Shown here in pieces: positions 33,584-50,484 of a stretch of 64,000 bases of DNA. Source of the DNA: Candidatus Peribacteraceae bacterium (lineage in GTDB: Bacteria; Patescibacteriota; Gracilibacteria; Peribacterales; Peribacteraceae); the NCBI GenBank assembly GCA_035547395.1, contig DASZVA010000014.1:6609-70608 (forward strand), read 5' to 3'. The translations under genes and the position numbers were made by a program. The notes under the pieces were generated by a model. It saw only the letters and a program-made list of their open reading frames with translations, made no database searches and was not told where the DNA came from. The stretch's first letter is position 1. Every line of letters begins with the position of its first letter.

Positions 33584-34549
33584 CTAGTCGTCCATCTCAT
33601 CCTCAATCTCTCCGACGAGTTCCTCCAGCACGTCTTCCAGCGTCACAATGCCGACGATTTTTCCGTTCTGCTGCACGGCTGCGAGGTGGATTTGTTTTCT
33701 GCGAAAGACGCCAAGCAGATCGTCGCAACGGATGGTGGACGGCACGAAGACAATCTCACGCAACAGATCGCTCAATGGTTTTTTGTCTTCGTCATCGGCC
33801 AACGCCTGCAGCACATCACTGCTCAGAACCATGCCTTTCATGTCATCAGGGGATTCGCCGTAGACGGGATAGCGCGAAAACTGATGGCGGAAAATTTTCT
33901 TTGCCGCCTGTTTCATCGTCGCGGTGAGCGGCAGCATGATGACGTCCTCGATCGGCGTCATCACGTCCTTGGCCTTGCGGTCGTTTAAGATGAACGCGCG
34001 GTGGATCAATTCTTTTTCATCGTAATCGATGTGACCTGCTCTGCCGCCGATATCCACGAGTGCGCGGATCTGATCCTCGGTGCCGATGTTTCGCTTGCCG
34101 CTCTTAAACACGCGCACGAACCGTTCGAGCACCCACACCACGGGCAGAAAGATAAAGGTAAACACCCGAAGCACCGGCGCGATCATGCGGCTGATCAATG
34201 GACTATAGTGCGCGCCGATCGCCTTCGGGATGATTTCGCTGAAGATGATCGTCACGACGGTGAGACCCGCGGTGATGAACCCGATGATGTGATCCTCGAA
34301 CAAATGCGCGGACACGGCGCCGATGAGCACGGGGCCGATGATATTGGTCAGGTTCGTGAGGATTGCGATCACCACGATCGCGCGCGTCAGATCTTTGATG
34401 AGAAACTTCAACTGAGTGGATCCCCACAGTTTCTTCTTGCGCATCTCTTCCACTTCCGCGATGGACACGCTCAGGATGGCGGCATCGATCATCGCCCAGA
34501 ATCCCGAGAGCAGAACGAATCCTATGATCAGCGCAATGAGTTCGGACAT
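33584..34549 (-). CDS. CNNM/DUF21 plus CBS-pair transporter (hemolysin-like / CorB-type)
   Basis: The start is placed at the internal ATG 34549 (MSELIALIIGFVLL...). DUF21 TM helices (FSEIIPK) are followed by two CBS motifs. No CorC_HlyC domain is present. Confidence 0.8.
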   Translation of the reverse strand: MSELIALIIGFVLLSGFWAMIDAAILSVSIAEVEEMRKKKLWGSTQLKFLIKDLTRAIVVIAILTNLTNIIGPVLIGAVSAHLFEDHIIGFITAGLTVVTIIFSEIIPKAIGAHYSPLISRMIAPVLRVFTFIFLPVVWVLERFVRVFKSGKRNIGTEDQIRALVDIGGRAGHIDYDEKELIHRAFILNDRKAKDVMTPIEDVIMLPLTATMKQAAKKIFRHQFSRYPVYGESPDDMKGMVLSSDVLQALADDEDKKPLSDLLREIVFVPSTIRCDDLLGVFRRKQIHLAAVQQNGKIVGIVTLEDVLEELVGEIEDEMDD

Positions 34550-34606
34550 TGAAGGCGAGTATAGCAGACGGCTGATCCCGCAAACGAAAAAGGGGAAACC
34601 GAACAA

Positions 34607-34972
34607 GTGGAATCGCTTTTTAGGCAAGCGCATATCGGTCAGGACCAAAGGATGAAAGCGTCAGAAGATATGCATCCGTGCGATGCCCCCATTTCTTTCC
34701 CATCTATTTCCATGAATACGACTGAGCAGACATGCGATTCGTATGTCATCGATACGTATAAATCCGTCGAGACCGGTACCTACATCCCCGGCGCAATCAC
34801 GTACTGCGGGAAAAAGAAACTCGAAGTCCTGCACTGGAAAGACCAGGAATGCGAAAGCCAGGATGAAGCCGACGCATTCGTCCACAGGCATTTCCATGCA
34901 TTGGACATCGCTGAGGCCGAAATTGCAGCCCAACCCGCCCTATACAGGACGCTTACGTCGCTGCGTACGTAA
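34607..34972 (+). CDS. hypothetical protein (start uncertain)
   Basis: The ORF occupies the gap between genes. No motif was recognised, and later in-frame ATGs are possible starts. Confidence 0.3.
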   Translation: MESLFRQAHIGQDQRMKASEDMHPCDAPISFPSISMNTTEQTCDSYVIDTYKSVETGTYIPGAITYCGKKKLEVLHWKDQECESQDEADAFVHRHFHALDIAEAEIAAQPALYRTLTSLRT

Positions 34973-35472: not shown

Positions 35473-37104
35473 TCAGTTCACTTTTGGCATACTCATTTGC
35501 ACCAGTGAATCATTATCAATTGCACCGTATATCAAGCTCTTTTTCAGAAATCTAGGTTGCCATATTCTTTTGAATGCATTTTTACTGATCGCACTGTTGA
35601 GCACAGTATGATAGCCATCCAATTGTTGACCAACATATGCGATATTCGAAGCAGCGCTATCGAATGTTAAATCATCAATCGTTGAAAAGCTTGTCTCGTA
35701 CTGTTTGGTACATGGATCGATATTATTGATGGGTAATGTCGTACTATCCAATTCCGGTTCAATTGATAAATGGTATTGTGCAGACAATATGGAAGATATC
35801 GTTGGCAATGGTCCTATTGGAACCGCATTAAATACAAAATACCAACCTTTATTTACTACAAAGCAGGAATACACATCTGTTACTCGGTACATACTCTCAT
35901 CTTGATATGGCTTGCCATTCGCATTCCATTCCAACGACACAATTTTCCCATCCGATTTTCTTTTTGCAAGTTGCGCGAAAACGTCATTCTGAGGAACAAA
36001 GATAAAATTACTAAAGTATGAAAAATAATCCGAAACATCCGTCTCGGCATCATCGATAATTACATGACCGTTTGAAGAACGAAGATTATCGGGCATGTAT
36101 GCCATATCTTTACCGTCATCGCTAAATGCAATATCCATTGCATCAAAGTATTGCTGTTTTGTGGGATTTCCATTTAAAACAAACGGACCTTGCAACATTT
36201 TATAATCTATTCCAACCGCATAGTTTGAACCGTTTTGATCAAATGATATTGAAGATGGAATGTCACTATAAGATACTTTTTGTAAGACTATTCTCTTTTG
36301 CATTGTATTCGTTGCTACATCATGAATTTCAAAAATTACCTCATTATCATGCGATAAGGCAGTATAAAGGAGATATTTGGAATCGGGGCTAAAGCTCATA
36401 GAAAAAACCTTTAAAAACGTTTCACTGACTGTTGCATTATATCCGTCTAATCTGATCGTATCCGCATTCCCATCCGCATTTAGGTCGGCTTGGTTCGCAA
36501 TATACGCGTAGTGCTTCAGGTCATTACTGATGATTGGCATTCTTGCTGTCCCATATAAGTCATATCCATCTTTTGATACAACATTTCCACCTGTTCCGTA
36601 AAATGTAACCTCACCTTTGCTGACATGAATAACTGCAACTTTTGAATAGTCATTTGAATACTGAACTTCCCAGCAATCTACTATGGGAAATTCCGAATTG
36701 CATTTTGGAGAATTAGCGATGAATGAAGCGGTGAATAAAACTTTTTCTGTTTCTCCCTGCACTTTTCTAACTATACCAATTTTTGGATTACTGTCGGCCT
36801 TCATTACCACAGAAGATTGAGAGGAAGAATTTTGATCAGGTAGATTGGAATTGTGATATTGCGTGATCAAGAAACGATCTCTCAAAGAATGATAAAATCC
36901 ACCCTCAAAAAAATATGAATATGTGGATTGATATTTATTGCTGATAGCAGAATAAATATTCCAATAATTTTTGGAGAGATAGGTTGAAGAAAATTGATAA
37001 ACTCCAAATCCCACTATGATAAATATCAATAGTGCTGTAGTTATCGCCCAAATGTTTTTTAAAGGAATTAAGCGCATAAATAATACCAATAGTCTGCATG
37101 ACAT
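35473..37104 (-). CDS. membrane-anchored hypothetical protein, possibly a PD40/WD40-like beta-propeller
   Basis: The gene is strongly AT-rich. An N-terminal TM helix is followed by recurring ..S.D(G/S)K..AY.. strand motifs (DSKYLLYTA, DGKDMAYMP, DLKHYAYIA, ASNIAYVG). Confidence 0.5.
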   Translation of the reverse strand: MSCRLLVLFMRLIPLKNIWAITTALLIFIIVGFGVYQFSSTYLSKNYWNIYSAISNKYQSTYSYFFEGGFYHSLRDRFLITQYHNSNLPDQNSSSQSSVVMKADSNPKIGIVRKVQGETEKVLFTASFIANSPKCNSEFPIVDCWEVQYSNDYSKVAVIHVSKGEVTFYGTGGNVVSKDGYDLYGTARMPIISNDLKHYAYIANQADLNADGNADTIRLDGYNATVSETFLKVFSMSFSPDSKYLLYTALSHDNEVIFEIHDVATNTMQKRIVLQKVSYSDIPSSISFDQNGSNYAVGIDYKMLQGPFVLNGNPTKQQYFDAMDIAFSDDGKDMAYMPDNLRSSNGHVIIDDAETDVSDYFSYFSNFIFVPQNDVFAQLAKRKSDGKIVSLEWNANGKPYQDESMYRVTDVYSCFVVNKGWYFVFNAVPIGPLPTISSILSAQYHLSIEPELDSTTLPINNIDPCTKQYETSFSTIDDLTFDSAASNIAYVGQQLDGYHTVLNSAISKNAFKRIWQPRFLKKSLIYGAIDNDSLVQMSMPKVN

Positions 37105-37221: not shown

Positions 37222-37298
37222 GGGCCAGTAGCTCAGTTGGTTAGAGCTCAGGACTTATAAACCTGCGGTCGATGGTTCAAATCCATCCTGGCCCACCA
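37222..37298 (+). tRNA. tRNA-Ile (anticodon TAT), CCA encoded
   Basis: GGGCCAG-TA-GCTC/AGTTGGTTA/GAGC-T-CAGGA/CTTATAA/ACCTG-CGGTC-GATGG/TTCAAAT/CCATC-CTGGCCC-A-CCA. The 31:39 pair is an A-A mismatch. Confidence 0.8.
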
Positions 37299-37397: not shown

Positions 37398-40130
37398 ATG
37401 CGACCGAGCGAGCATGTGAATGGAAACGGCAGTATCACCATACCCGCATCACGTGCCGAACGTTCGGAATCCGTCAGCGCACAAATAAGACAATTGGCGG
37501 GTGAGTTCAAGGTGAGGATGAATCATGATTCTCTGACTCCTGAATTTGTCGGTGAAGTGATTGCAGATTATCAAAACAGAGGTGTGCTTCATGATGCTTT
37601 TTCAATAGAGGCAATCCAGGCACTGAGCGAAATCGAAGGAATGCAAATGGATATCAGGGAAGCCGTAACACGACATGTGTCCGCTTTGCAGACAGTCGAA
37701 GATGTAATTGGCCAGGCACTCACACGCACGAGGGCAATCGATAGAGAGAAGTTTGAATATCGAAAACAATACTGTGATCCGAGAAAAAATTATCTGCTTC
37801 CTCAACGGGTCAAATCCGGAATTGTGGAAGTATATGATCTGCTGGCATCCACACCGGGAGCCCGGGAAAAATTTTTACTGGACTATCACTTTACGGAAGA
37901 AGAGATAATGGAGTGGAAGCAAAAAAAGGAAAGACGCTCAAATGGAGAAGGGGATAACGCGAGTCAAAAAACCGCACAACGCTCGATAGCAATGCCACCC
38001 GCTGTTCAAGCAAAAGCGGAGCAGAGAAATCCCATCGAACAAGCAATCTATGATGCGTTGCAGAACGTTGCCATTGACCATGCGTTATTCTGGAGACGTC
38101 GGAAAATGAATAATCTGATCAATGCCAAGCTCCCGAAATTCGTCAAAATAGGCGTGGTTCAGATTTTCGACGCCGTTGCCGGAACTCTCGGCTCACAGGA
38201 GTATTTGTTGGAACATTTCAAATTCAGACGTGAAGAGATCGAGATGTGGCGTCAGCTGTCGGAGCAATCTTCAGCAACACCCGTATCAGAAAAACAAATG
38301 AATACTGCGACACCATCGGAGACCGCACTCACTCTTCCACACGCCCAAGAGACATCGGTTGCAGCCGATGAAAAACCACGCCCGACAAATGTCTGCAAGC
38401 AGGCAATTTATGATGCACTGCAAACAATCGATATTCAGAATAAGCAGCGTTTCTGGAGACGCAGATATGGCGTCAGCTTTCCCAATGCCCGGCTGCATGA
38501 CGATATCAAAATAGGAATGGTTCAGCTCTTCGATGCCATCGAACAGACCCCCGGCGCACAAGAATATCTGCTGACAGTGTACAAATTCACACGAGAGGAG
38601 ATTGAACTTTGGCGCGGGTTGGCAGAAGAACCGTTGGCTGCGGCATCGTCAGAGCAGCTCGAAACCGTCGACGCACCAATAGACATTGCAGCGACGCAAG
38701 AAACGGATGAAGAGAACCCCGCATTCACTCAACCACAATCGCCGGTTACTATCGATGCAGCGAATGGCAATGTAGAGCCGGCGGAAGAGGCGCATGGTTC
38801 GGACAGCGACACGACGGCGATCATGGATATGCAGACGCCTGTCGATCCATCGTCGGAAGCGCCCGCGAGTGAACCCGAAAAATCACCGGGGAATGAAGGC
38901 AAGCCAGTCAGGACCCCCTACATCACGCGGCAACGTCTTCCATCTTTCATCTCCGCATCATCACCCGCACGAAGACCAAGCATCAAATCTCGCGACATAC
39001 TGAACAAGGACGTATTGCAGCGTGTCCACATGGTCGTCGAAGGGGACGAGCAGATGGAAGAGGCATGGCATCTCACGCAGCTGTACGCCAGGGGAAATAT
39101 GGTAATGCTCTATCGTGGCGAGCGCGGAACGGGCAAGGAACTGTTTCCCCGCGCGGTGCATCAACTCACAAAAAATGGAAATAAGTTTCTGGCCGTTAAC
39201 TGCGCCGGCTTCAATGATGGTGTCGTGGAGAGCGAGCTCTTTGGCCACGAAAAGGGCGCATATACCGATGCGAGAGTGGAGCGCGACGGAGCATTCGGCC
39301 ATGTGGCGGACGGAGGCACGCTGCTGCTCGACGAAGTCGGGGACATGCCGCTCAATCAACAGGCAAAGCTCCTGCGCGTTCTGCAGAACCGACAATTCAA
39401 TCGCGTCGGCAGCAACAAAATGATCGATATCTCTCCGCAGACCAAAATCATTGCGGCGACAAATCGCGATCTGGAACAATTGGTCGAGGATGGAAAGTTC
39501 CGCAGCGACCTCTACGACCGCCTGCGCGGCTGTCAGATTTTCATCCCGCCGCTTAGGGAAAGAGACGAATCTCATCGCCAAGCACTGGTGAAGCATTTTC
39601 TGAACACGATGCATAAAGCAGACTGCATCTTTAAGCTGAGCGACGATGCACTGCAGTATATGTTGCAACACGACTACCCGGGAAACGTCCGCGAGCTCAA
39701 GGACCACATCGAGCGTTCGTGCCTCATTGCACAATCAGATGTTTCCTTGAATGAACAATCGGTCACGCTCTCACTGGAACATGTCCGCATGGCGGAGGAC
39801 ATGTCGTCCGTGCAGATGCTGCGGCACGTTGCGCTCGGCAATAGAGAAGACTGGGCATCTTACTTTAATGGCGCATTGCAGATCTCCGAATCCTGTGATC
39901 CGTCAGACCCTGATCCCACCATCAACTTCACCGTGCGTTTGAGAGGAGTGGATCAAAATATCAAAGGAATTATGGAAGCAATGATGGTAAAAGTTTGCAG
40001 CGGTTTATTGGGTATTTGTGGAAACAATCAATCAGTGACAGCGGAAATTCTCGGCATCACCCGAGGAAGCTTGCGCAACAAACTAAGGATGAAGGATGTG
40101 TTTGAGGAAGAAGATCGGAAGGGGAAGTGA
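37398..40130 (+). CDS. bEBP-like AAA+ (sigma-54-interaction-domain family) protein with a triplicated N-terminal module, degenerate GAFTGA loop and C-terminal Fis-type HTH
   Basis: Walker A is GERGTGKE (aa 574-581) and Walker B is LLLDEVGDM. The stretch ESELFGHEKGAYTDA (GAYTDA at 39255-39272) replaces GAFTGA, and the R-finger region is IIAATNRDL...FRSDLYDRL. The HTH is NQSVTAEILGITRGSLRNKLR. Three ~73-aa repeats lie at about aa 104-176, 214-286 and 334-406. Confidence 0.8.
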   Translation: MRPSEHVNGNGSITIPASRAERSESVSAQIRQLAGEFKVRMNHDSLTPEFVGEVIADYQNRGVLHDAFSIEAIQALSEIEGMQMDIREAVTRHVSALQTVEDVIGQALTRTRAIDREKFEYRKQYCDPRKNYLLPQRVKSGIVEVYDLLASTPGAREKFLLDYHFTEEEIMEWKQKKERRSNGEGDNASQKTAQRSIAMPPAVQAKAEQRNPIEQAIYDALQNVAIDHALFWRRRKMNNLINAKLPKFVKIGVVQIFDAVAGTLGSQEYLLEHFKFRREEIEMWRQLSEQSSATPVSEKQMNTATPSETALTLPHAQETSVAADEKPRPTNVCKQAIYDALQTIDIQNKQRFWRRRYGVSFPNARLHDDIKIGMVQLFDAIEQTPGAQEYLLTVYKFTREEIELWRGLAEEPLAAASSEQLETVDAPIDIAATQETDEENPAFTQPQSPVTIDAANGNVEPAEEAHGSDSDTTAIMDMQTPVDPSSEAPASEPEKSPGNEGKPVRTPYITRQRLPSFISASSPARRPSIKSRDILNKDVLQRVHMVVEGDEQMEEAWHLTQLYARGNMVMLYRGERGTGKELFPRAVHQLTKNGNKFLAVNCAGFNDGVVESELFGHEKGAYTDARVERDGAFGHVADGGTLLLDEVGDMPLNQQAKLLRVLQNRQFNRVGSNKMIDISPQTKIIAATNRDLEQLVEDGKFRSDLYDRLRGCQIFIPPLRERDESHRQALVKHFLNTMHKADCIFKLSDDALQYMLQHDYPGNVRELKDHIERSCLIAQSDVSLNEQSVTLSLEHVRMAEDMSSVQMLRHVALGNREDWASYFNGALQISESCDPSDPDPTINFTVRLRGVDQNIKGIMEAMMVKVCSGLLGICGNNQSVTAEILGITRGSLRNKLRMKDVFEEEDRKGK

Positions 40131-40198: not shown

Positions 40199-40882
40199 GT
40201 GTTCAAGCGCACAGATTTGGCTGGGCTAACAAGTTACGATTCATTTTTTAACTATGATGACAGACAGTTCGAATATGCTTGCAAATACCTATTGGAGGAA
40301 ACCGCACAAGCGAAGTCCGTTTTTGTTACAAGCAAAGGTCCTAAGGGCGGGGATGGAGGTATTGATTTAAAAATACATCTAAAAGATGGACCCATTATCT
40401 ATGGGCAATGCAAACTTTGGAGGTCTCGCTACAGAGGACTTATTGCTACTATCAATCAATTGTCGGGTTGTTTGCGTCGCGACAAGATTGACAGAGGCAT
40501 ACTTATGATCACCGTCCCAGCAACCGACTACGAGAAAAGAGAAGCAGCCAAATGCGACATCGAGATTATTGATGCTCCCGCATTAGACGCACTGATCGCA
40601 CAATTACGAACTAGTAATCAGCCCGTTCTTTCCAAAGTATCCGCCGTTCAAAAGGTTTGCATAATTTTAAAATTCATTTTAATAGTCATTACATTTTTGC
40701 TCATCTGCATTGTTGCAGCACCATTGCTCTTGTTAATGCTACTACTTGCAGCCCTGGCATTTTCAGGAAACATATCCTCGGGTGGAGGCTCTAAATATTA
40801 TCGTAGGAATAGGCGACATAAGCGAAGGAGTTACAGAAAATATAGAGGAAAACGAACAACAAACGGATGGGGAGTGGCTTGA
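40199..40882 (+). CDS. Mrr-like restriction endonuclease catalytic domain (PD-(D/E)xK) fused to C-terminal TM helices and a poly-basic tail
   Basis: It has FEYACKYLLEE...GGDGGIDLKI....IYGQCKLW...GILMITVPATDYEKREAAKCDIEIIDAPALDALI. A ~45-aa hydrophobic stretch follows, then YYRRNRRHKRRSYRKYRGKR. Confidence 0.7.
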   Translation: MFKRTDLAGLTSYDSFFNYDDRQFEYACKYLLEETAQAKSVFVTSKGPKGGDGGIDLKIHLKDGPIIYGQCKLWRSRYRGLIATINQLSGCLRRDKIDRGILMITVPATDYEKREAAKCDIEIIDAPALDALIAQLRTSNQPVLSKVSAVQKVCIILKFILIVITFLLICIVAAPLLLLMLLLAALAFSGNISSGGGSKYYRRNRRHKRRSYRKYRGKRTTNGWGVA

Positions 40883-40970: not shown

Positions 40971-41264
40971 ATGAGATTCTCACTCGCAGCCGTCACGGCC
41001 ACGTCGTTCCTCGTTGTAGCTCTCCCGATTGTCTCCCCGCTGGCAGAAGCCGCACCACCCACCCGGCCACTCGCTCCGCACGCGCACATGCTGGCACCCG
41101 TCACCGGGAATGATGATGCCCTGGACGACATCGACCTCCGCGAGGTGGATGATCGTGATGTGGAGGATGATACCACTGGTGATGTGCGGTTGAGGGAGGA
41201 GAGGGATGTGCGGGAGGATGGGGTTGGGGAGGGGGAGAGGAGAGGTGGGGTGGTAGGGAAGTAA
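40971..41264 (+). CDS. hypothetical small secreted acidic protein (doubtful)
   Basis: 97-aa ORF with a signal-like N-terminus (MRFSLAAVTATSFLVVALPIVSPLAEA). It sits in a GC-rich patch inside an AT-rich island. There is no RBS check and no recognised motif. Confidence 0.3.
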   Translation: MRFSLAAVTATSFLVVALPIVSPLAEAAPPTRPLAPHAHMLAPVTGNDDALDDIDLREVDDRDVEDDTTGDVRLREERDVREDGVGEGERRGGVVGK

Positions 41265-41363
41265 GATAAAATCGGTTATTCTCTTAACAATTGCCATTAT
41301 AAAAAGATGTGGCATTATTTATTTATATTTGTAAATTAATATTATCATTTATTCCGACAATTC

Positions 41364-42800
41364 ATGCGTGTTTTGTTAGACACAAACGTCATTATTCAAT
41401 CCGAGGATGACGTCGAGCTCTCGGAGCATGTGCAGGAACTCCATCAGCTCGCGCAGAAGCATGGCATTCAGCTGTGTGTCCATCAACAAAACAGGGCTGA
41501 CTTAATGAATGATCGAGATGAACGGAGACGACGAATCACAATTGGCAAGCTGGGTAAATACCCACAGTTAGAATTTAATCAGCAGCCCACCCCAGAATTT
41601 TTTGCAGAGATTGGAGCAGTGTCCACGCCCGGCACCAACGACTTCATCGATGATTGTCTATTGTTCGCATTAAAAAGCCACGCCACCAGCTACTTAATTT
41701 CTGAAGACAATGGCATCCATGCGAAGGCGCGAAGGATCGCCGGAATGGAAGATCGCGTGTTTTTCATAGAGGAATTCATTGAAATGGTAAGGGAGCAGTT
41801 TGAACAGGTTACGCCAATGCTGCCCACGATTGAAGAGGTTGAGATTAATACACTGAACGTCGATGATCCTATTTTTGATTCTCTCAAGGAAGATTATGAC
41901 GGATTCACAGATTGGTTTCATAGAAAGGCTGAAGAGGGCAGAAGGGCTTGGGTTATGAGACAGGGAACTGCATTAGCCGCAGTTTGCATCTTCGATCCTA
42001 GAAACAGGGACTGCGATGATGGCATGAAGCTATGCACCTTTAAAGCTTCTGATTTACTAAAAGGTCTGAGAGCGGGTGAGCATCTGCTCAAGCAGGCATT
42101 TTTTTTCGCCACCGAGCACGGCATTACCATGATGCGTGTCGAAGTATTCTCCGATAAAGAATACCTGATAGGCTGGTTTGAAGATTTTGGCTTCTATCAA
42201 ATTGCATCGAAGATGAAGAATGGCCGTACTGAATTGGTCTTCCAAAAAGACATGACGCCCATTACCACAAATGACGGAGCGCCACTGGCCTTAGCAAGAA
42301 AACATTTCCCCTTCCTTCCGGAACCACCATTTGTACGTGCATTTGTCATCCCGATACAGCCCGAATTCAGCAGTATGTTATTTCCGGAGCTCGCAGTACA
42401 AGGATCATTGTGGCTTTCGCCATGCGGTCATGCCATTACGAAAGTATACGTGTGTAATGCGAATACCACGGCTATCCGAAATGGCGACTTGCTGCTGTTC
42501 TACGAAAGTCAGACGAGGAGGGCGATCTTCGCTCGTGGAGTCGTGGATGATGTATTAAGAAGTTCGGATTCAGAGGAAATACTGACATTCATTGCAAAGC
42601 GATCCGTCTATACACAAGAGCACATACAGGAAAAGGCGTCTCGCGGCGGCGTGCTGGCCATCAAGTTTTATCAATCTTGTCTTCCAATCACCGACATCGC
42701 GTATCAATCTCTGGAAAGTATGCAAATCTTGAATGGCCCACCGCAGTCAATAGTTCAATTGAGCGACATGGAATACAGTAAGCTTCGACAACTACTATGA
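41364..42800 (+). CDS. three-domain fusion: PIN-like nuclease, GNAT-like acetyltransferase and ASCH/PUA-like domain
   Basis: The PIN-like region covers aa 1-145 (MRVLLDTNVII..., DDCLLFAL, ISEDNG). The GNAT-like core covers about aa 150-300 (DPIFDSLKEDYDGFTDWFHRKAEEGRRAWV...LLKQAFFFATEHGITMMRVEVF...WFEDFGFY). The C-terminal region resembles the downstream ASCH protein (FVIPIQPEFSSMLF...NGDLLLFYESQTRRAIFARGVVDDV). Confidence 0.65.
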   Translation: MRVLLDTNVIIQSEDDVELSEHVQELHQLAQKHGIQLCVHQQNRADLMNDRDERRRRITIGKLGKYPQLEFNQQPTPEFFAEIGAVSTPGTNDFIDDCLLFALKSHATSYLISEDNGIHAKARRIAGMEDRVFFIEEFIEMVREQFEQVTPMLPTIEEVEINTLNVDDPIFDSLKEDYDGFTDWFHRKAEEGRRAWVMRQGTALAAVCIFDPRNRDCDDGMKLCTFKASDLLKGLRAGEHLLKQAFFFATEHGITMMRVEVFSDKEYLIGWFEDFGFYQIASKMKNGRTELVFQKDMTPITTNDGAPLALARKHFPFLPEPPFVRAFVIPIQPEFSSMLFPELAVQGSLWLSPCGHAITKVYVCNANTTAIRNGDLLLFYESQTRRAIFARGVVDDVLRSSDSEEILTFIAKRSVYTQEHIQEKASRGGVLAIKFYQSCLPITDIAYQSLESMQILNGPPQSIVQLSDMEYSKLRQLL

Positions 42801-43207
42801 TCTTCCTCCCGATTAAACCAAAGTACGCACTCCAAATTCACCAACTGAACAAGCTCGTCGAATTCCGCAAGGTAGGATTCAAACGAAACAGTGACATTTG
42901 CATTGTTTATGCGAGCAGTCCCGTGAAGAAAATAATTGGCTATTTTGTGATTGAGGAAGTCGCAATGGGTACACCGAACACCATCTGGCGAAAATACGGG
43001 CGGCATGGTTGCATTAGCAGGGCGGAGTTTTACGAATACTTCGGTTCTTCAGAAAAAGCATTCGCAATAAAAATTAAAAGTTATCATGCGCTCGATCAAG
43101 AAGTCGATCCTCAAGAGCGCATTCGTAATTTTCACATACCACAATCCTTCCGCTATTTGTCCGATTCTGAGCAGAGACATTTAATGCCAGAACTTGCACT
43201 CGCCTAA
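42797..43207 (+). CDS. ASCH-domain protein
   Basis: MIFLPIKPKYALQIHQLNKLVEFRKVGFKRNSDICIVYASSPVKKIIGYFVIEEV...IWRKYGRHGCISRAEFYEYF shows the typical ASCH pattern. Its ATG overlaps the upstream stop (ATGA). Confidence 0.75.
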   Translation: MIFLPIKPKYALQIHQLNKLVEFRKVGFKRNSDICIVYASSPVKKIIGYFVIEEVAMGTPNTIWRKYGRHGCISRAEFYEYFGSSEKAFAIKIKSYHALDQEVDPQERIRNFHIPQSFRYLSDSEQRHLMPELALA

Positions 43208-44331
43208 ATAGCTCCAACGAATGCCTTCTGCATGAGAGCATTAAATTGATTATCAATTTCTAGTGATTGTGAAAACATCTTTTCCTTTATTTCCTCCACT
43301 TGAAGAACAATTTTTTGGAATTCATTTTGCAAATTTACAGGAGGAACTATCAAATCCAAATCTCTAAGAATGCGAAGGTTTATGTTTTTTTGTGCAACTT
43401 GTGGTGCATTTTTTTCGATTATCTCTTTTAGAAAAGAAAGCCAATAAAGAACAAAAAGGTTGTTGGTTTTTTCTGGATCGGGAACAAAACCTACAACGCT
43501 GTCTGGAAAGCATGCATCAAAAGTAAGAATTCCTGCATCCGCAATGTTTGCAGCAATCGTAATGCACAGGGTGCCTGTAGGCCATTTTTTGCTTTGCTTC
43601 AGGCCAAAATCAGAATAGGTACTTTTGTAATTTCTTATAAGAATGTTTGATTGGGCGACATCCCCCGTTTGAATTAATGGATGGCTACCCCCAAGGAGCT
43701 CAGGTGCATTACGCGGTCTATGTTTAGATTTGCCTCTGTCCAATGTCCCAAGCTTTCCAAATTTTTCTTTTGGCCAATTTTTAGGATTCGTCACCGGATC
43801 ACCAAACATCTCCATAAACACCGCCTGCACGTACCCATCCAGCAGCTTCATTGACTCCCTACGCTTGCGGCGCAGCGCATCGGCTTGGTTGAGGTAGGAG
43901 ACAATGCGCTTTTGGTCTTCGAGTGGAATCACTGGAATTCGCAAACTCATCAAAGTTTTTTTGTCGATGTGGGGAATTGTTGCGCCTGTAGCTCTGTCAC
44001 GTAGATACTTTGATTTACTCTGTAGAAATCTGCCAAAAAAGCCCACATCAAAGTAGTGGGTGTCGATTTCTAGTCGCGCCAAAGTGCTGCCAATGACTCC
44101 TGATAAGCCGTAGCCGACCGTTCCCGCGTTAGCTCCATCCCATGCAATGATCACATGCTTAGGATGAACCTCCACTCCGCGTGAAGCCGTATACTTTATG
44201 CCATTATCATTCCTCAAATCGCCAATCTGGATGTACCTCACAAATCCATCTGCCGGATTGTGTTGGTAACTTTCGACTTTTTTGCCCTTCCGAATTTTCA
44301 CTATGCCTGCGAGAGCGGCAGAATCAGTCAT
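43204..44331 (-). CDS. hsdS: type I restriction-modification system specificity subunit
   Basis: It has two target-recognition domains separated by the conserved helices (PLEDQKRIVSYLNQADALRRKRRESMKLLDGYVQAVFMEMFGDP; ..PVNLQNEFQKIVLQVEEIKEKM). Its start overlaps the hsdM stop by 8 nt. Confidence 0.9.
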   Translation of the reverse strand: MTDSAALAGIVKIRKGKKVESYQHNPADGFVRYIQIGDLRNDNGIKYTASRGVEVHPKHVIIAWDGANAGTVGYGLSGVIGSTLARLEIDTHYFDVGFFGRFLQSKSKYLRDRATGATIPHIDKKTLMSLRIPVIPLEDQKRIVSYLNQADALRRKRRESMKLLDGYVQAVFMEMFGDPVTNPKNWPKEKFGKLGTLDRGKSKHRPRNAPELLGGSHPLIQTGDVAQSNILIRNYKSTYSDFGLKQSKKWPTGTLCITIAANIADAGILTFDACFPDSVVGFVPDPEKTNNLFVLYWLSFLKEIIEKNAPQVAQKNINLRILRDLDLIVPPVNLQNEFQKIVLQVEEIKEKMFSQSLEIDNQFNALMQKAFVGAI

Positions 44332-45841
44332 GATACGATTTGAGTGAATTGATTCCTGCCATTATTTCACTCTCCAACTTCTCAATCTTCCCCAAAATCA
44401 CCTTTGGCTCCTCATACTGCACCGCCTCGTACGTCACCTCCTTGTAGCGGTTCACACTGAGGTCATATTCGTTGTCTTCGATCTCTTTGCGCGGCACGAG
44501 GAAGCATTTACCGCTGCGGTCGCTCTTGGTTTCCCCGCGCTTCTTCCACTGAGCCACGATGTCGGGGATGTCATTCTGAGCGATGCGCTCTCGCTTGTCG
44601 TCCAGGCTGAAGCCATCTGCTTCCATGTCGTAAAACCAGACGTTCTCCGTCTCGCCGCCCTTCACGAAGACGAGGACAGCGGTACTAACTCCGGCGTACG
44701 GCCTGAAGACGCCGCTCGGCATCGAGATGACTCCTTGCAGCTCGCACTGCTCGATGAGCATCTTGCGGGCCAGCTTGTGCGCATTGCTGGAGCCAAAGAG
44801 CACACCATCGGGCACGATCATCGACGCACGACCGCCAACGCGCAGGGCATTGATGATCCGGTTGATGAACAGCAGTTCCGTCTTCGTCGTCGGAAGCATG
44901 AGCGATTCATTGATGTCACCCTTGTCGATGCTACCCTTGAACGGCGGGTTGGCCATGATCACGTCGTACACGCCTTCCTCCACGTAGTTTTTGGAGAGCG
45001 TATCGCGCTGTTCAATGTTCGGGTGGCTGATCCCGTGCATCATGAGGTTCATGAGGCCGATGCGTACCATCGCCTCGTCCGCGTCGAATCCGTAAAAGGT
45101 CTTCTCCTTCAGATGCTGCCATTGCCGCTCGTCGGTGAGCAGATCACCCACCAAACCACGCGGGAGGCCGTTTGCGTCCGTCACGCGGTGCTTCTCGCTC
45201 GTGTGCTGAGTGAGGATGTGCTGATACGCGCCGAGCAGGAAGCCGCCCGTACCGCAGGCGGGATCGCAGATCGTATCGCCAAGCTGCGGATTCACCAGCT
45301 CACACATCATCTGAATGACGTGGCGCGGCGTGCGGAACTGGCCCAGCTTGCCCGCGCTCGTGATCTCGGACAGCAAATGTTCGTACAGGTCGCCTTGGGT
45401 GTCCTGAAATTCCTGCCCCTCTCTTTGCTCTCGGGAGATTTCTTCGTAGATTTCGTCGATGATGTTCACGGCCTCGACGAGGAGTGATGGCTTGCTGATG
45501 ATGAAAACCGCATTGCCCATGTGCTTTGCATACGGGCTATCGGTGCTGCCGAGGCTCTTGAGGAAGGGAAACACCTTCTTCTGCACGTGGTCGAGCATCG
45601 CGCCGCCTTCCATCTGCTTGAAGTGGCTCCAGCGCAGGTCGTCCTGTCCGGCAAAAAACGATTGGTAGTTTTCGCCCGTGAACTCCGCATCCTGCTTCTT
45701 CGTGAGGTCGAGTTCGTCGAGCCGCTTCATGAATAGCAGGTACGAAATCTGCTCAATCGCCGTGAGCGGGTTAGCGATGCCGCCGCTCCAGAAATTAGTC
45801 CAGAGGCGATCGACAGCGGAGCGGAGTGTGCTATTGAGCAT
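44324..45841 (-). CDS. hsdM: type I restriction-modification system DNA methylase subunit (N6-adenine)
   Basis: The HsdM N-terminal domain is followed by motif I DPACGTGGFL and motif IV MANPPFKG. The start is placed at the internal ATG 45841 (MLNSTLRSAVDRLW...), which overlaps the hsdR end by 11 nt. Confidence 0.92.
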   Translation of the reverse strand: MLNSTLRSAVDRLWTNFWSGGIANPLTAIEQISYLLFMKRLDELDLTKKQDAEFTGENYQSFFAGQDDLRWSHFKQMEGGAMLDHVQKKVFPFLKSLGSTDSPYAKHMGNAVFIISKPSLLVEAVNIIDEIYEEISREQREGQEFQDTQGDLYEHLLSEITSAGKLGQFRTPRHVIQMMCELVNPQLGDTICDPACGTGGFLLGAYQHILTQHTSEKHRVTDANGLPRGLVGDLLTDERQWQHLKEKTFYGFDADEAMVRIGLMNLMMHGISHPNIEQRDTLSKNYVEEGVYDVIMANPPFKGSIDKGDINESLMLPTTKTELLFINRIINALRVGGRASMIVPDGVLFGSSNAHKLARKMLIEQCELQGVISMPSGVFRPYAGVSTAVLVFVKGGETENVWFYDMEADGFSLDDKRERIAQNDIPDIVAQWKKRGETKSDRSGKCFLVPRKEIEDNEYDLSVNRYKEVTYEAVQYEEPKVILGKIEKLESEIMAGINSLKSYHD

Positions 45842-48635
45842 GAGCGAGCAGTGCGTGAGTAAAATCGAGGATTTCCGCGCGCTCCTTTGGCTTGAACAAG
45901 CCAAGGAAGCCCTTCTCGTGGAAGCGCGTGAACGGCTCGCGGGTGAGGTCTTTCTTGTCGAGCCTGCCGTTTTCGATAATGAATGTCTCAAGCGTACGCA
46001 AAAACTGAATCTGCTTCGCGGTCAGCGTGTTGTGATGGACGATGAACTCCGCGAATGCTTCCGACACCTTGTCAGGGAAGGTCTTGAGTTCCCCGATCCC
46101 CATAATGTACCTGATCAAATCGAGAAATTGAACCCTTCTCGCGTTGTACGCCTTCTGCAAGTTCTGCTCGTTGGGATACGGATCGTACTGCTCCAGCGTG
46201 TCGGCAAGCTGCTCCAACTCGTCCTTCGACAGGCTCGCGCCCTTCTTCACTTTCTTGAGGATGGGATTCTCGTCTTCCAGCTTCTTGATGAGCGCTTCCA
46301 CTTTCTCGCGGTACTTCTGCACGGAGACGCGCTCATTGGCAGGGCCGAACTCGATCATCTGCTTTTCAGCGGTGAGGTCGCGCAGGTTCAACTTCTCTTG
46401 GTCGATCTTGAACCCTTCCTCGCGGAACCGCATGAGCGGCGCGAGGCTGTGCACGATCTCTTGCAACTGCGCTTCATCGGCCTTGGGCACAAAGCCCTCA
46501 TTCAGCACTGCCTCGATCAGCTCTTTGTGCTTAGCGACGGTGTTCACGGAAAGCGGCAGATCGGAAATTTTCTCGATGATGACCTGCTCCAGCGTCTCGA
46601 TCTTCTTGGCGTCCGCATTGAGACGGGCGATAGAGAGCTGCAAGACGTTGATTTCGAGGCTCATGGCCTTGAAGTCCTCGTTGCTGCGCGTGCGCATGAG
46701 CGGGGCGATCTCCTTTTGCAAATAGAGCTGCTTCTCGTCATTGAGGTTCTTCCAGAACGCATCGTCCAGCCGTTCGATCTTCGATTTCGCGTCGAGCACC
46801 ACCACGTTGTTATGCGGCAGCTTCTTGATGTCCTCGCGCATGGACGCGATCGTCTCCTCCGCGATCTTCTCCTCCTGCGCCTTCACCGCCGCCGCGTATT
46901 TCTGAAGACGTGTCTCGAAGAGGCGTACGGGCAGGGGCTTCGTGGGGCGTTCCTCTTTGCCCTTCGGATTCATCTGGAAATACTCGAAGTTGCCCCAGCA
47001 GTCGATAATGAGGAAGTGGTCTTTCTTCGTGCACCACGGCTTCATGGCTTTTGGCTCCAGTAGGCGTGTCCCGCGTCCGATCATCTGCCAGAATTTCGTG
47101 TATGAGAACACTGGCTTGGCGAAGACGAGGTTCACGATCTCGCGCACGTCGATGCCGGTATCGAGCATGTCCACGCTGATAGCGATGCGCGGCATGTCGT
47201 TATTCTTGAACTGATCGAGCAGACCGCCCTTGCCGTGGACGCGGCTATCTTCGGACACGAGCACCTTGGCGATCTTGCCCTTCTGCTCCGGGTAGAGATT
47301 GTCGAACATTTCCTGCAACCGCCATGCGTGCTCTTTGGTCATGGCGAAGAAGATCGTCTTGCCCGGCAGCACGCCACTGTCATCCTTGATGCACTCTTCC
47401 ATGAATTCCTCAACGATGAGCGCGTTCGTGCCCTTGTTCGTCACCTTCTTCTCCAAATCCGTGCCCTCGTAGTTGATGTCCTCCAGCTCCTTACCCTCGG
47501 CCAGCAGCTTTTTCTGGTCTTCCAGCGACAGTTTGTCGTGATGGATGCCCTCGGCTTGGAACTTCGTTTGCAATGACATGACCTCAAAGTCACAGAGATA
47601 TGGTGGTTTATTGTTCACGGCTTCCTCATAGGTGTAAGCATAGGTAGGTTCTCCATCGTCACACGAGAACAGATCAAATGTATTGTGGTCGATGGCATCT
47701 GTAGGTGTAGCAGTGAGACCAAGCTGAAGAGAATCGAAGTAATCAAAAATATTCCGGTAGGCGTTATAGATTGAACGATGGCTCTCATCAGCCACGATGA
47801 GGTCAAAGAAATGCGGGGAGAGTGGGCAATCCACCTGCTCGATAATATTGAGCAACATCGGATAGGTCATAGTATAAACTCGGCGATCGGTAGTAATTTC
47901 TTGCTCTCCCTGTTTCGGCCAGAGTGGTGCATTTGGCAAAAATTCACGAAATGCTTCTATCGCCTGATCGCGGAGTGCTATGCGATCGACTAGGAAGAGA
48001 ACTCGTTGTACGCGATTACTGCGCATGAGGACATCGAGTAGAGACACACATGTGCGTGTCTTACCCGTCCCTGTCGCCATAACGAGAAGAAACTTACGTC
48101 GTCCTTTGTCGACACCTTCAAGCACTGAACGGATTGCCTGAATTTGGTAAGGACGATTGGAGATGTCGCGATTGATCAGTTCCTGTGACATTGGCTTAGT
48201 GCTCTCACGCAGGTACAGCATCCTTTCTAAATCTTTACGTGTTGGGAAGCCATAGACCTTGCGAGGTGCATATCGCTCTGTATCCCAGAAAAAAATATCA
48301 TGGCCATTTGTATAAAAGACAAAAGGCATTTCACGACCCGTATTTTTGACAATGTTTTCCGCATATTGCTTCGCTTGTTCCTGCCCAACGCGCGCATCAC
48401 GAGATGTTTTCTTTGCTTCCACGACTGCCAGTGGATAACCATCTTCGCCTAGCAGCGCATAATCAGAAAATTGATGCCCTTGGAATTCATGCATTGGTAC
48501 TTCAATCCCTTCTGGTAAGCCAACCCAGATATCCATCTCAGTCAGGACCTTTGTTGGATCATTGATATCCCATCCAGCTTTTAGCAAGCGCTTGTCAATT
48601 ATCTCACGACGAGTCTTTGCTTCGGATTCGTTCAT
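45831..48635 (-). CDS. hsdR: type I restriction enzyme R subunit (nuclease plus SF2 helicase)
   Basis: The N-terminal PD-(D/E)xK region is followed by helicase motifs MATGTGKT and DESHRS and a C-terminal helical domain. It is 934 aa. Confidence 0.92.
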   Translation of the reverse strand: MNESEAKTRREIIDKRLLKAGWDINDPTKVLTEMDIWVGLPEGIEVPMHEFQGHQFSDYALLGEDGYPLAVVEAKKTSRDARVGQEQAKQYAENIVKNTGREMPFVFYTNGHDIFFWDTERYAPRKVYGFPTRKDLERMLYLRESTKPMSQELINRDISNRPYQIQAIRSVLEGVDKGRRKFLLVMATGTGKTRTCVSLLDVLMRSNRVQRVLFLVDRIALRDQAIEAFREFLPNAPLWPKQGEQEITTDRRVYTMTYPMLLNIIEQVDCPLSPHFFDLIVADESHRSIYNAYRNIFDYFDSLQLGLTATPTDAIDHNTFDLFSCDDGEPTYAYTYEEAVNNKPPYLCDFEVMSLQTKFQAEGIHHDKLSLEDQKKLLAEGKELEDINYEGTDLEKKVTNKGTNALIVEEFMEECIKDDSGVLPGKTIFFAMTKEHAWRLQEMFDNLYPEQKGKIAKVLVSEDSRVHGKGGLLDQFKNNDMPRIAISVDMLDTGIDVREIVNLVFAKPVFSYTKFWQMIGRGTRLLEPKAMKPWCTKKDHFLIIDCWGNFEYFQMNPKGKEERPTKPLPVRLFETRLQKYAAAVKAQEEKIAEETIASMREDIKKLPHNNVVVLDAKSKIERLDDAFWKNLNDEKQLYLQKEIAPLMRTRSNEDFKAMSLEINVLQLSIARLNADAKKIETLEQVIIEKISDLPLSVNTVAKHKELIEAVLNEGFVPKADEAQLQEIVHSLAPLMRFREEGFKIDQEKLNLRDLTAEKQMIEFGPANERVSVQKYREKVEALIKKLEDENPILKKVKKGASLSKDELEQLADTLEQYDPYPNEQNLQKAYNARRVQFLDLIRYIMGIGELKTFPDKVSEAFAEFIVHHNTLTAKQIQFLRTLETFIIENGRLDKKDLTREPFTRFHEKGFLGLFKPKERAEILDFTHALLAHAQ

Positions 48636-48780: not shown

Positions 48781-50484
48781 ATGCCTAAAACCGACATCAA
48801 GGTGAGTGAACTGGTTGAAAAGGTACAGCGGGGAGAACTGCGTCTTCCGGAAATGCAGCGGCGCTATGTATGGTCTGCGACGATGGTTCGTGATCTTCTT
48901 GACTCTCTCTATCGCGGATACCCGTCCGGAACCATTCTTGTATGGGAAACAGATGAAGACATAGAGACTCGCGATTTGGCCGTGGCCCCCACGCGCACGC
49001 CAACGACGACAGGGAAGCTGCTGCTATTGGATGGTCAGCAACGCACCACATCGCTGACATCGATTCTATCGGGAGAACCGGTATGGGTTCGCAACAGACG
49101 TAAGCCCATTGAGATTCTCTTCAATCTTGACCATCCGGCCGGGCCACCGGCAGATGCTCAGGAATTCGGTGAGCCGGATTATTCTGAGGATATCGAAGAT
49201 ATGGAAGACGAAGAGAGTGCAGAGCGGGATATTCAAGAAGAGCTTAAGCAAAAAACATTTGTCGTTGCCAATAAAGCACTGAAAAATAATCCAATTTGGG
49301 TGTCGGTATCGGATATTTTCAAGATGACGGACAGCCAGATTTTACGGGGGCTTGGCATCAACTCAGATAATCCGAAATGGGACATGTACGCGGAGCGTCT
49401 TCAGCAGGTGCGAAAAATAGAAGACTATTCCTACGTCATGCATGTACTTGAGAAAAACATGTCCTACGCGGAAGTGACGGATATTTTCGTCCGCGTGAAC
49501 TCGCAAGGAATCAAATTGCGTGGATCAGATTTAGCCATTGCGCAGATAACATCGAAATGGAAGGGATTCATGCAGACCATAGAAGACTTTGCTAAGGAGT
49601 TTGGCGATGAAGAAAACAGCATACTGGAAGCAGGGTTACCGATTCGCGCATTGGTCGTATTTGCAACACATCAGAGTCGATACAAGACCGTGGGAAAGTT
49701 GAGTCTCGACCAGATGAAAAAAGCATGGGTACAGGCCAAGGAAGCGCTGGAGTTTGCGATTAACTTTGCGCACAGCAACGCCGGCATAGACAGTATCGAT
49801 TATTTATCTGCACCAACGCTGCTGGTTACAATCGGTGTCTATGCGGTACTGAGACAGGGGAAACTGACTGCTGAAGAAACAAAAATGCTCCTTCGTTGGT
49901 TGTACATCGCTCATATGCGCGCTCATTATACGGTCGCATCTTCGGAATCCGTTTTGGATAGTGATCTTTCACTTCTCTTCAAAGGCGGTGATTTGCCTGC
50001 CCTGCTGGAGCAATTACAGCTGCACGTTCGTAAGTTTGAACTGGATCCGGAGGAGGTGAGAGGGAAGGGGATTCGCAGTCCGATTTTCTCAATGCTCTAC
50101 ATCGTCTTAAAGCATCAAGGAGCAAAAGACTGGCTGTCCGGTTTGGACCTTGACCACCACATCGGAAAGGCACATGCCATTCAGTATCATCACATTTTTC
50201 CCAAGGCACTGCTAAAAAAATCCCACTATGAGCCAAAAGAAATCAATCAGATCGCCAACATGGCATTCATTGGCGGCAAAACAAATCGTCATATCATGGA
50301 TAAAGAACCGATCGTCTATATGGAAAATATGGTTCTACCGAAGCAAGGCGAAGGCGCTTTGCATTCGCAATTGATTCCTAGTGATCGATCGCTTTGGAGA
50401 TTAGAAAATTATCCGCAGTTCCTCGAATATCGGACAAAAGCAATTGCTACATGTATCAATGAATTTTTGAGGAAATTCAATTAA
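48781..50484 (+). CDS. GmrSD-like DUF262 (ParB-like NTPase) plus DUF1524 (His-Me finger nuclease) protein; putative type IV modification-dependent restriction enzyme
   Basis: The N-terminus has LRLPEMQRRYVW......LLDSLYRGYPSGTILVW and DGQQRTTSL. The C-terminus has HHIFPKALL....NMAFIGGKTNRHI. Confidence 0.8.
   Translation: MPKTDIKVSELVEKVQRGELRLPEMQRRYVWSATMVRDLLDSLYRGYPSGTILVWETDEDIETRDLAVAPTRTPTTTGKLLLLDGQQRTTSLTSILSGEPVWVRNRRKPIEILFNLDHPAGPPADAQEFGEPDYSEDIEDMEDEESAERDIQEELKQKTFVVANKALKNNPIWVSVSDIFKMTDSQILRGLGINSDNPKWDMYAERLQQVRKIEDYSYVMHVLEKNMSYAEVTDIFVRVNSQGIKLRGSDLAIAQITSKWKGFMQTIEDFAKEFGDEENSILEAGLPIRALVVFATHQSRYKTVGKLSLDQMKKAWVQAKEALEFAINFAHSNAGIDSIDYLSAPTLLVTIGVYAVLRQGKLTAEETKMLLRWLYIAHMRAHYTVASSESVLDSDLSLLFKGGDLPALLEQLQLHVRKFELDPEEVRGKGIRSPIFSMLYIVLKHQGAKDWLSGLDLDHHIGKAHAIQYHHIFPKALLKKSHYEPKEINQIANMAFIGGKTNRHIMDKEPIVYMENMVLPKQGEGALHSQLIPSDRSLWRLENYPQFLEYRTKAIATCINEFLRKFN

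Follow-up and report, generated by a model that had tools for sequence, protein, structure and literature searches.

We analysed a stretch of 64,000 nucleotides (hereinafter the window) from a Candidatus Peribacteraceae bacterium (GenBank assembly GCA_035547395.1, contig DASZVA010000014.1, positions 6,609 to 70,608 of the forward strand), focusing on a pair of overlapping genes, A and B, that lies between a gene for an Mrr-like nuclease and an operon coding for the three subunits of a type I restriction-modification (R-M) system (Table 1). The product of A combines a PIN nuclease domain, a GNAT acyltransferase domain and a C-terminal domain with a PUA-like fold in a single polypeptide, and B encodes a stand-alone ASCH protein. 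The original prediction, made from the letters of the window alone, had presented the pair as an undescribed system without a name and expected no call from PADLOC, and in both respects it was wrong. A matches the PADLOC profile PDC-M11A (PDLC04421; E 4.1e-130), with residues 1-476 aligned to profile positions 1-482 of 486, and B matches PDC-M11B (PDLC04425; E 4.3e-40), likewise over its full length. The pair in the window is a further member of a catalogued, experimentally uncharacterised family, (PIN)-GNAT-EVE + ASCH.

Bell, Wolf and Koonin (2020, BMC Biol 18:159; PMC7641849) described the operon of PIN-GNAT-EVE and ASCH genes together with its association with type I R-M systems; they noted that experimental characterisation was lacking for all of the modules and that the two forms differ in their distribution, the PIN-bearing one being R-M-linked and the PIN-less one prophage-borne. 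That article credits Iyer et al. (2013, NAR 41:7635) with the module and with a proposal of DNA base acetylation (PMC7641849). The PDC systems are 145 "phage defence candidates" derived from genes found embedded in loci of the BREX, DISARM and type I R-M systems (guilt-by-embedding; Payne et al. 2024, 10.1101/2024.01.29.577857). The literature of 2013 and 2020 already covers the architecture, the partner gene and the linkage to R-M, and PADLOC represents them as PDC-M11; the window pair has the same three-domain fusion, the same adjacent ASCH gene and the same type I R-M association, and nothing essential sets it apart. The differences are of detail: the R-M-linked relatives are mostly embedded on the same strand as the hsd genes, whereas in the clade of the window the pair is convergent with hsdS, the stop codons overlapping, and the AAA_17 gene that recurs in PDC-M11-type loci is absent from the window.

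A further description of the family comes from phages. Searches of phage records with tblastn recovered a PIN-less homologue in Escherichia coli lambdoid phages, and in the record of phage PhiR47_2 (GenBank PV340567.1) this gene is labelled "GevT toxin" and is followed by a "GevA antitoxin", the two standing directly after cI. Profile-profile comparisons with hhalign relate GevT to the GNAT-EVE part of the A family with a probability of 100% and GevA to the B family with a probability of 99.9% (33% identity), and the two proteins score as PDC-M11A and PDC-M11B, respectively. Of 5,426 complete E. coli genomes, 275 (~5%) carry this phage pair with at least 99% identity. It shares with A and B the gene order, the overlap of the two genes and the homology of both components; GevT, however, lacks the PIN domain, measures 357 residues against the 478 of A, and is only ~22-25% identical to it, and the phage pair sits in a prophage beside cI with no link to R-M, in contrast to the chromosomal R-M island of the window. 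Judged by these comparisons, the window pair is a PIN-bearing relative of the pair annotated as GevT/GevA. The PhiR47 phages also appear in the Nature 2026 paper on SNIPE, as test phages only.

To dissect protein A we gathered homologues falling into 114 clusters, derived residue conservation from a 102-sequence alignment and used an AlphaFold model with a mean predicted local confidence (pLDDT) of 92.2 and a predicted template-modelling score (pTM) of 0.85. Scanned alone against Pfam, the window protein yields only sub-threshold matches (EVE, 19.8 bits; Acetyltransf_1, 19.9 bits against a cutoff of 20.7; PIN_12, E 0.011), and all 50 matches listed in a Foldseek search with the whole model are ASCH or GNAT domains. 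The assignment of the PIN domain therefore relies on Pfam matches across the members of the family and on residue conservation. Among 32 A-family members scanned singly, 20 N-terminal segments matched a family of the PIN clan (PIN_3 in 13, PIN_12 in five, PIN_4 and PIN in one each), the best PIN_3 match reaching an E-value of 2.5e-6, with a single unrelated family among the matches. The acidic residues D6, E14, D96 and D115 are each retained in 98-102 of the 102 sequences. Searches of the Protein Data Bank (PDB) with profiles of this domain gave weak matches (1o4w, E 0.05-0.6).

Among the Foldseek matches listed, the GNAT region of the model is related to dozens of GNATs, including PaiA, HP0935 and Ard1 (E 1e-6 to 1e-5; template-modelling (TM) score on the target 0.6-0.73), and a profile of the A family run against the PDB retrieved NAA50 (E 3e-7) and PaiA, with E-values between 3e-7 and 1e-4. 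In the putative coenzyme A (CoA)-binding loop G234 is found in 97 and G238 in 99 of the 102 sequences, and K227, E239 and G276 are invariant. The C-terminal domain is EVE-like by sequence and ASCH-like by structure: Pfam EVE was matched in 13 of 27 family members and Pfam ASCH in none of them, and the domain cut out of the window protein scores 22.7 bits against EVE (cutoff 23), while Foldseek, run with the whole model, ranks ZmASCH first (E 4e-8, TM on target 0.76-0.78). Alignment of this domain to the B family with hhalign gave an E-value of 1.7e-4 at a probability of just 50%; in it Y380 and S462 of A fall on Y38 and S117 of B, and the same two residues of A correspond to Y47 and S128 of ZmASCH. 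Taken together, the three parts of A are a PIN nuclease that has kept its acidic tetrad, a GNAT acyltransferase and a PUA-like domain for nucleic-acid binding.

We also observed that the clade of the window departs from the family at two near-invariant positions of the PUA-like domain, with S336 (42369-42371) and H356 (42429-42431) where the family has a histidine in 94 of 102 and an asparagine in 96 of 102 sequences, respectively; these substitutions may reflect an altered ligand specificity. Separately, we considered whether A is a type IV, modification-dependent DNA restriction enzyme and rejected this, PIN being its sole nuclease domain and no DNase family being detected in A. The Mrr_cat gene is a separate open reading frame (ORF) upstream, and there is no fusion of a reader to a DNase within A.

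Protein B was studied with more than 200 homologues, from which conservation was computed over 100 B-family sequences, and with an AlphaFold model of pLDDT 95.5. A phmmer search relates it to ZmASCH, the product of Zymomonas mobilis ZMO0922 (PDB 5GUQ and 5GUS), with an E-value of 7e-17 at ~30% identity, and the model superimposes on ZmASCH with a TM score of 0.88 and a root-mean-square deviation of 1.6 Å (E 2e-12); Pfam ASCH is matched by 75 of the 100 family members. Eleven residues are invariant in all 100 sequences, namely K19, E22, F23, R24, Y38, W64, Y81, P115, Q116, S117 and Y120. K19, E22 and R24 make up a K-x-x-E-x-R motif of the GKER type, and the GK[T/S]R octapeptide of the YqfB type, with its catalytic Thr or Ser, is not present; both clade definitions, GKER/ZmASCH and GK[T/S]R/YqfB, derive from a recent preprint (bioRxiv 10.64898/2026.02.27.708502). 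YqfB itself (9kyf) compares with the B model only at an E-value of 5e-3, a TM score on the query of 0.54 and 11% identity. Hence B is a ZmASCH-type ASCH protein (family 2, GKER), and the alternative that it is an N4-acylcytidine amidohydrolase of the YqfB type was rejected on motif and structure. Its structure also resembles the N-terminal reader domain of McrB and the DNA-bound ASCH domain of TRIP4.

ZmASCH binds single-stranded DNA and RNA and is a Mg-dependent ribonuclease specific for single-stranded RNA, to which Y47, K53 and S128 contribute (PMC5615036). In B these cleft residues align with Y38, K44 and S117: Y38 and S117 are the invariant ones, and K44 varies between K and Q across the family and is K in the window. 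B thus retains the equivalents of the residues that ZmASCH needs for nucleic-acid binding and single-stranded RNA cleavage. ZmASCH was studied as a stand-alone protein, and its structure paper does not state its gene context (PMC5615036). We also asked whether ZmASCH could be the orthologue of B in a Zymomonas PIN-GNAT-EVE operon; its identity to the B proteins is 30-38% throughout and stands out for none of them.

The two genes are translationally coupled. They overlap by the four nucleotides ATGA, which join the stop of A to the start of B, and the same overlap is found in the locus L081, whose A protein is 70% identical to that of the window. At the other end, the TAA stop of B (43205-43207) overlaps the complement of the TAG stop of hsdS (43204-43206) by 2 nt. 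The pair has a GC content of 41-48% against 56-59% in the backbone. A scan for promoters and terminators around the pair returned counts no higher than in shuffled sequence; we mention TTGCCA-16-CATTAT at 41291-41318 as a candidate promoter site only. Much of what the original prediction had read at this locus was upheld. The PIN, GNAT and PUA-like domains of A are borne out by Pfam across the family, profiles, Foldseek and residue conservation; its description of the C-terminal region as "ASCH/PUA-like" was fair, EVE being the sequence match and ZmASCH the nearest solved structure; and the stand-alone ASCH gene is confirmed by the sequence and structure matches to ZmASCH. The ATGA-linked operon is present in both the ORF list and the raw sequence, GC content and Pfam place an AT-rich pair between an Mrr-like nuclease and a type I R-M operon as stated, and the overlap of the B and hsdS stops is real. 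Its idea of a defence-type module in a defence island is supported by the hsd, Mrr-like and GmrSD-like neighbours.

To examine the spread of the pair we scanned one genome per GTDB species with a profile built from a 23-sequence alignment, and found an A relative in 467 of 185,579 species. From these species we retrieved 80 loci (given L-numbers below), which were annotated with our own ORF calls and hidden Markov models; they come from bacteria of the candidate phyla radiation, Bdellovibrionota, Bacteroidales, Proteobacteria, Methanoperedens, Halobacteria, Asgard archaea and DPANN archaea. A parallel HMMER search of 1.84 billion representatives gave 497 clusters at E<=1e-30 and 978 at E<=1e-10 (clusters at 50% identity), and nearly all of the best 150 matches to A are 480-515 residues long. 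A B homologue directly adjoins A on the same strand in 79 of the 80 loci. It mostly lies downstream and overlaps A, but in alphaproteobacteria and Bdellovibrionota it lies upstream, where the three longest cases tested (L051, L073 and L076) proved to be fusions of an XRE-type helix-turn-helix (HTH) domain to ASCH. Such constancy cannot be put down to chance; since the gene order varies while the adjacency stays, we take the link between A and B to be functional and not mere synteny.

The association with type I R-M was counted with iteratively built profiles in the 39 loci with 5 kb or more of flanking sequence on each side, within a distance of 10 kb. Such hsd genes were found in 12 of them (~31%), with at least two subunits in 11 of the 12; for a random gene we would expect 1-2%, a figure that is a rough estimate and was not computed. 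The pair lies inside the hsd operon in L009, L012, L036, L062 and L070, and L062 additionally has an ASCH::HsdS fusion. L081, the closest relative on a long contig, reproduces the layout of the window, A -> B <- hsdS-hsdM-hsdR, and is surrounded by genes for TIR, caspase-like, DUF4062, LexA-like and serine-recombinase proteins. Other recurrent neighbours are AAA_17 ATPases (eight loci), YhcG/DUF1016 nucleases (five), integrases (four), Fic proteins (four) and COG2865-like proteins with SLFN_AlbA_2 and HATPase_c_4 domains (four). The census in this way reproduces the published features of the family, i.e. AAA_17 neighbours, HTH-ASCH fusions, the ASCH-HsdS fusion and COG2865 neighbours. Some of the Methanoperedens loci have metabolic neighbours such as CitG, DUF447 and PurP-like genes. 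Homologues also occur on 33 plasmid records, many of them large rhizobial replicons, and tblastn against phage records found one in the Methanothermobacter phage psiM100. The low-GC island of the window, the plasmid records and the integrases or recombinases near several loci together establish that the pair is horizontally mobile, and it is often found beside or within hsdRMS operons. The co-conservation across genomes and the non-housekeeping context on which the original prediction depended are both seen, B adjoining A almost without exception in defence or mobile-element settings.

Two archaeal loci depart from the simple two-gene form. In Methanolobus (L046:11505-13199) the gene that follows PIN-GNAT-EVE encodes a 565-aa fusion of ASCH with a second GNAT, and in Methanoperedens (L012:5676-6932) the A-B pair is followed by an extra 419-aa GNAT protein with a weak match to the B ASCH profile (E 2e-12). 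Gene fusions are commonly taken to indicate physical or functional interaction, and these tandem and fused variants hint that the ASCH and GNAT-EVE modules might interact physically.

With moderate confidence, we propose that the pair is a toxin-antitoxin-like abortive-infection module that travels with, and maybe backs up, type I R-M systems; the single steps set out here are far less likely than the reading as a whole. The reading derives from the toxin and antitoxin labels in GenBank, from the antitoxin-like character of B and from the record of PIN and GNAT domains as toxins. B resembles an antitoxin in being small, in sharing an operon with A, in being HTH-fused and upstream of A in alphaproteobacteria and in being GNAT-fused in Methanolobus. 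A would be the effector or toxin, its PUA-like domain docking on RNA, most plausibly tRNA or another modified RNA, which the GNAT domain would acylate and/or the PIN domain would cleave, so that translation would be halted. RNA is the likely target in view of the single-stranded RNase activity of ZmASCH (PMC5615036) and of the PIN and GNAT toxins that act on RNA or aminoacyl-tRNA, as has been argued for the toxin-antitoxin systems bearing these domains (PMC7641849). B would keep A silent by binding it or, by virtue of a paralogous PUA-like fold, by competing for the nucleic-acid site that A uses; alternatively, it could reverse or degrade the product of A enzymatically. In some lineages it might also autoregulate the operon by means of the fused HTH. 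Interference by a phage, e.g. inhibition of the linked type I R-M complex or a shut-off of host gene expression, would then free A.

Such a release would be analogous to that of PrrC, which EcoprrI keeps in a latent state. A comparable back-up role, at least in the R-M-linked subset, is suggested by the repeated occurrence of the pair inside hsd operons and by the fusion of ASCH to HsdS. The likeness is a functional analogy only: in both cases a potentially RNA-targeting effector is tied to hsdRMS genes, within which several A relatives are embedded, and the shared idea is that of a second-line suicide module released upon inhibition of R-M. PrrC, however, combines an ABC ATPase with a nuclease, its domains are unrelated to those of A, and it resides in a type Ic R-M operon with no separate antitoxin-like partner, whereas the R-M linkage of A and B is facultative. 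Type II GNAT toxins such as AtaT, TacT and ItaT offer another parallel, in having a GNAT as the putative toxin, two overlapping genes and a partner that sometimes carries an HTH; but they are small, stand-alone GNATs paired with DUF1778/RHH antitoxins, unlike the three-domain A with its ASCH partner.

Several points weigh against this proposal. At position 272 the GNAT domain has L, I or F, so that the catalytic tyrosine typical of many GNATs is absent there. B is basic (isoelectric point 9.4; family median 9.3) and has the full set of invariant cleft residues, features that suit an enzyme or a protein that binds nucleic acids better than an antitoxin acting simply by protein binding. Fusions of PUA-like readers to nucleases are, in the classical cases, directed at DNA. 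With R-M linkage in only about a third of the long-flank loci, a role in guarding type I R-M cannot be general, and in the window itself the pair is convergent with the hsd operon and not embedded in it. The PDC systems are explicitly called "untested" by their authors (10.1101/2024.01.29.577857), our literature search found no experiment on any PIN-bearing member, and it did not find the paper behind the GevT/GevA names, so that the toxin-antitoxin label is a GenBank annotation alone.

The original prediction, in line with Iyer et al. (2013), had favoured a system of base acylation, in which the GNAT domain would place an acyl mark such as N4-acetylcytosine on a base of DNA or RNA, with the fused PUA-like domain as its reader and the stand-alone ASCH protein as its eraser or a second reader, and the PIN domain would cleave marked or unmarked nucleic acid, the whole forming a modification-based layer of self/non-self discrimination beside type I R-M. 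We regard this as improbable, even though the GNAT domain is accompanied by two PUA-like domains, the ASCH-HsdS fusion in L062 suggests a role in reading DNA, and B resembles the McrB and TRIP4 domains in structure. Support for an eraser comes from reports that some ASCH proteins are N4-acetylcytidine (ac4C) amidohydrolases (PMC6972931), and from a preprint in which every ASCH protein assayed removed ac4C34 from tRNA in vitro; the same preprint, however, found ZmASCH inactive on the ac4C nucleoside and tRNA ac4C in vivo not lowered by it (bioRxiv 10.64898/2026.02.27.708502). B belongs to the clade of ZmASCH and not to that of YqfB, on which the analogy of the prediction rested, and the eraser is thereby weakened, the in-vitro removal of ac4C from tRNA being what remains in its favour. 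The proposal of DNA base acetylation goes back to Iyer et al. as reported by Bell et al. (PMC7641849). Further points against base acylation are that the phage homologue carries a toxin-antitoxin label, that PIN domains as a rule cleave RNA and do not serve as DNA restriction nucleases, and that we know of no report of an acetylated DNA base in these hosts. A more specific form of the idea, in which the GNAT of A is guided to an RNA or DNA base by the PUA-like reader and the ASCH protein reverses or polices the mark, making a writer/eraser immune switch coupled to type I R-M, has to be judged unlikely; its logic would be similar to that of DarT/DarG, with different chemistry.

A second alternative shares the toxin-antitoxin architecture with the abortive-infection proposal but assigns the pair to plain addiction, i.e. 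to the stabilisation, by post-segregational killing, of the R-M or defence island, of plasmids or of prophages, with no direct anti-phage function. The homologues on 33 plasmids, many of them large rhizobial replicons, and in prophages, the recombinases close by, and the HTH-ASCH fusions, which resemble autoregulating antitoxins, would all suit it. What makes it doubtful is the recurrence of defence settings, inside hsd operons and beside TIR/caspase, GmrSD, YhcG and Fic genes, and the location of the lambdoid-phage pair directly after cI, where lambda has rexAB. The rexAB genes, which follow cI in lambda, are exclusion genes, and many toxin-antitoxin systems found in defence contexts have proved to be abortive-infection systems. 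Bell et al. (2020) instead proposed that the phage PIN-less GNAT-EVE protein acetylates modified aminoacyl-tRNAs and thereby poisons the host, and that the host PIN-GNAT-EVE protein is a counter-measure which recognises and degrades the acetylated tRNAs, with ASCH regulating expression (PMC7641849). The split between R-M-linked PIN-bearing and prophage-borne PIN-less forms on which this builds is repeated in our data, the window and the 80 loci being on one side and the E. coli lambdoid phages on the other. Yet both forms share the ASCH partner and the conserved GNAT residues, which points to variants of one system and not to antagonists, and a GNAT that solely recognised a substrate would not need conserved CoA-loop glycines; as the model also has no experimental support, we hold it to be highly unlikely. 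Least credible of all is a housekeeping function in RNA modification or turnover, such as tRNA acetylation with a proofreading nuclease. PUA, ASCH and TmcA-like GNAT domains are indeed common in translation-related RNA modification, and the metabolic neighbours in Methanoperedens point the same way; those neighbours, however, recur only in closely related genomes, which fits a shared insertion site, and the patchy distribution over ~467 of 185,579 species representatives, the island composition, the carriage on plasmids and phages and the variable, defence-rich neighbourhoods tell against it. We rejected a housekeeping role on this patchy, mobile distribution.

Whichever of these readings is preferred, the family is still worth studying by experiment, with its union of acyltransferase, nuclease and two PUA-like domains and its spread over bacteria, archaea, plasmids and phages. 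The substrate of A would show whether acylation of nucleic acids or of aminoacyl-tRNA serves immunity, and would also explain the attachment of ASCH to type I R-M specificity subunits. If the writer/eraser reading were true, the pair would be the first example of a defence system based on the acetylation of bases.

The pair is part of a mosaic low-GC island of the window that extends over ~35.0-50.5 kb, where the GC content is 35-48% except in hsdM and hsdR (near 56%), against a backbone of 56-59%. It is bounded by a CNNM/CBS gene (33584-34648) and the gene for ribosomal protein L9 (50568-51029), and gathers genes of the Mrr-like, PDC-M11, type I R-M and GmrSD-like kinds. Among the island ORFs examined, none was seen to encode an integrase.

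Table 1. Coordinates, in the window, of the gene pair, its domains and the neighbouring genes of the island
Feature	Position	Strand	Description
Gene A	41364..42800	+	478-aa ORF, ATG start; PIN-GNAT-EVE/PUA-like fusion; matches PADLOC PDC-M11A
Gene B	42797..43207	+	136-aa ZmASCH-type ASCH ORF; matches PADLOC PDC-M11B; basic
PIN-like nuclease domain of A	41364..41813	+	aa 1-150; acidic residues D6, E14, D96, D115
GNAT acyltransferase domain of A	41814..42263	+	aa 151-300; G234-x-(K/R)-x-G238-E239 loop; K227, E239, G276 invariant
C-terminal PUA-like domain of A	42318..42797	+	aa 319-478; EVE by sequence profile, ZmASCH-like by structure
ATGA overlap, A stop / B start	42797..42800	+	read from sequence; translational coupling
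hsdS, type I R-M specificity subunit	43204..44331	-	Methylase_S E 1e-26, two stretches; convergent with B; associated system, separate from the pair
hsdM, type I methyltransferase	44324..45991	-	N6_Mtase E 3e-62, HsdM_N E 5e-16
hsdR, type I restriction subunit	45831..48635	-	ResIII E 4e-40, EcoEI_R_C E 1.5e-26, HSDR_N
Mrr_cat-family nuclease, upstream of A	40199..40882	+	Mrr_cat E 3.7e-8; island neighbour
GmrSD-like gene	48781..50484	+	GmrSD_N E 5e-31; PADLOC HEC-05 E 2e-46

The left part of the island has several further features. A 543-aa ORF on the reverse strand (35473-37104), which at ~36% GC is the lowest of the region, has an N-terminal hydrophobic segment and no Pfam match. Between this gene and a regulator of the sigma-54 type lies a tRNA-Ile with anticodon UAU (37222-37298). 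The regulator (37398-40130, forward strand) is a 910-aa AAA+ activator with a Fis-type HTH, whose AAA+ part matches PADLOC RtcR_PspF2 (E 2e-78); it lacks a CARF domain, and its N-terminal 530 residues hold three repeats of ~130 residues (AIYDALQ..FWRRR..IGxVQxFDA..EYLL..F..EEIExW). At its C-terminus the Mrr_cat protein has a long hydrophobic segment resembling a transmembrane region, and a tail that is very basic, which suggests a membrane-anchored restriction-type nuclease. Directly before the AT-rich leader of A there is a GC-rich 97-aa ORF (40971-41264, forward strand) with an acidic C-terminal half, which ends in a G-rich tract (~41170-41262, with GGGG and GGAGG runs) and is also called on a second contig with an identical A protein (L086). 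To the right, HEC-05, the PADLOC family matched by the GmrSD-like gene, is a "Hma-embedded candidate" family from the preprint that defined the PDC systems (10.1101/2024.01.29.577857). Lastly, the listed hsdM ORF has a TTG start and overlaps the end of hsdR by ~160 nt at its 5' end; since its HsdM_N match begins only at residue 55, it is probably over-extended at this end, the true start being an internal methionine near 45841.

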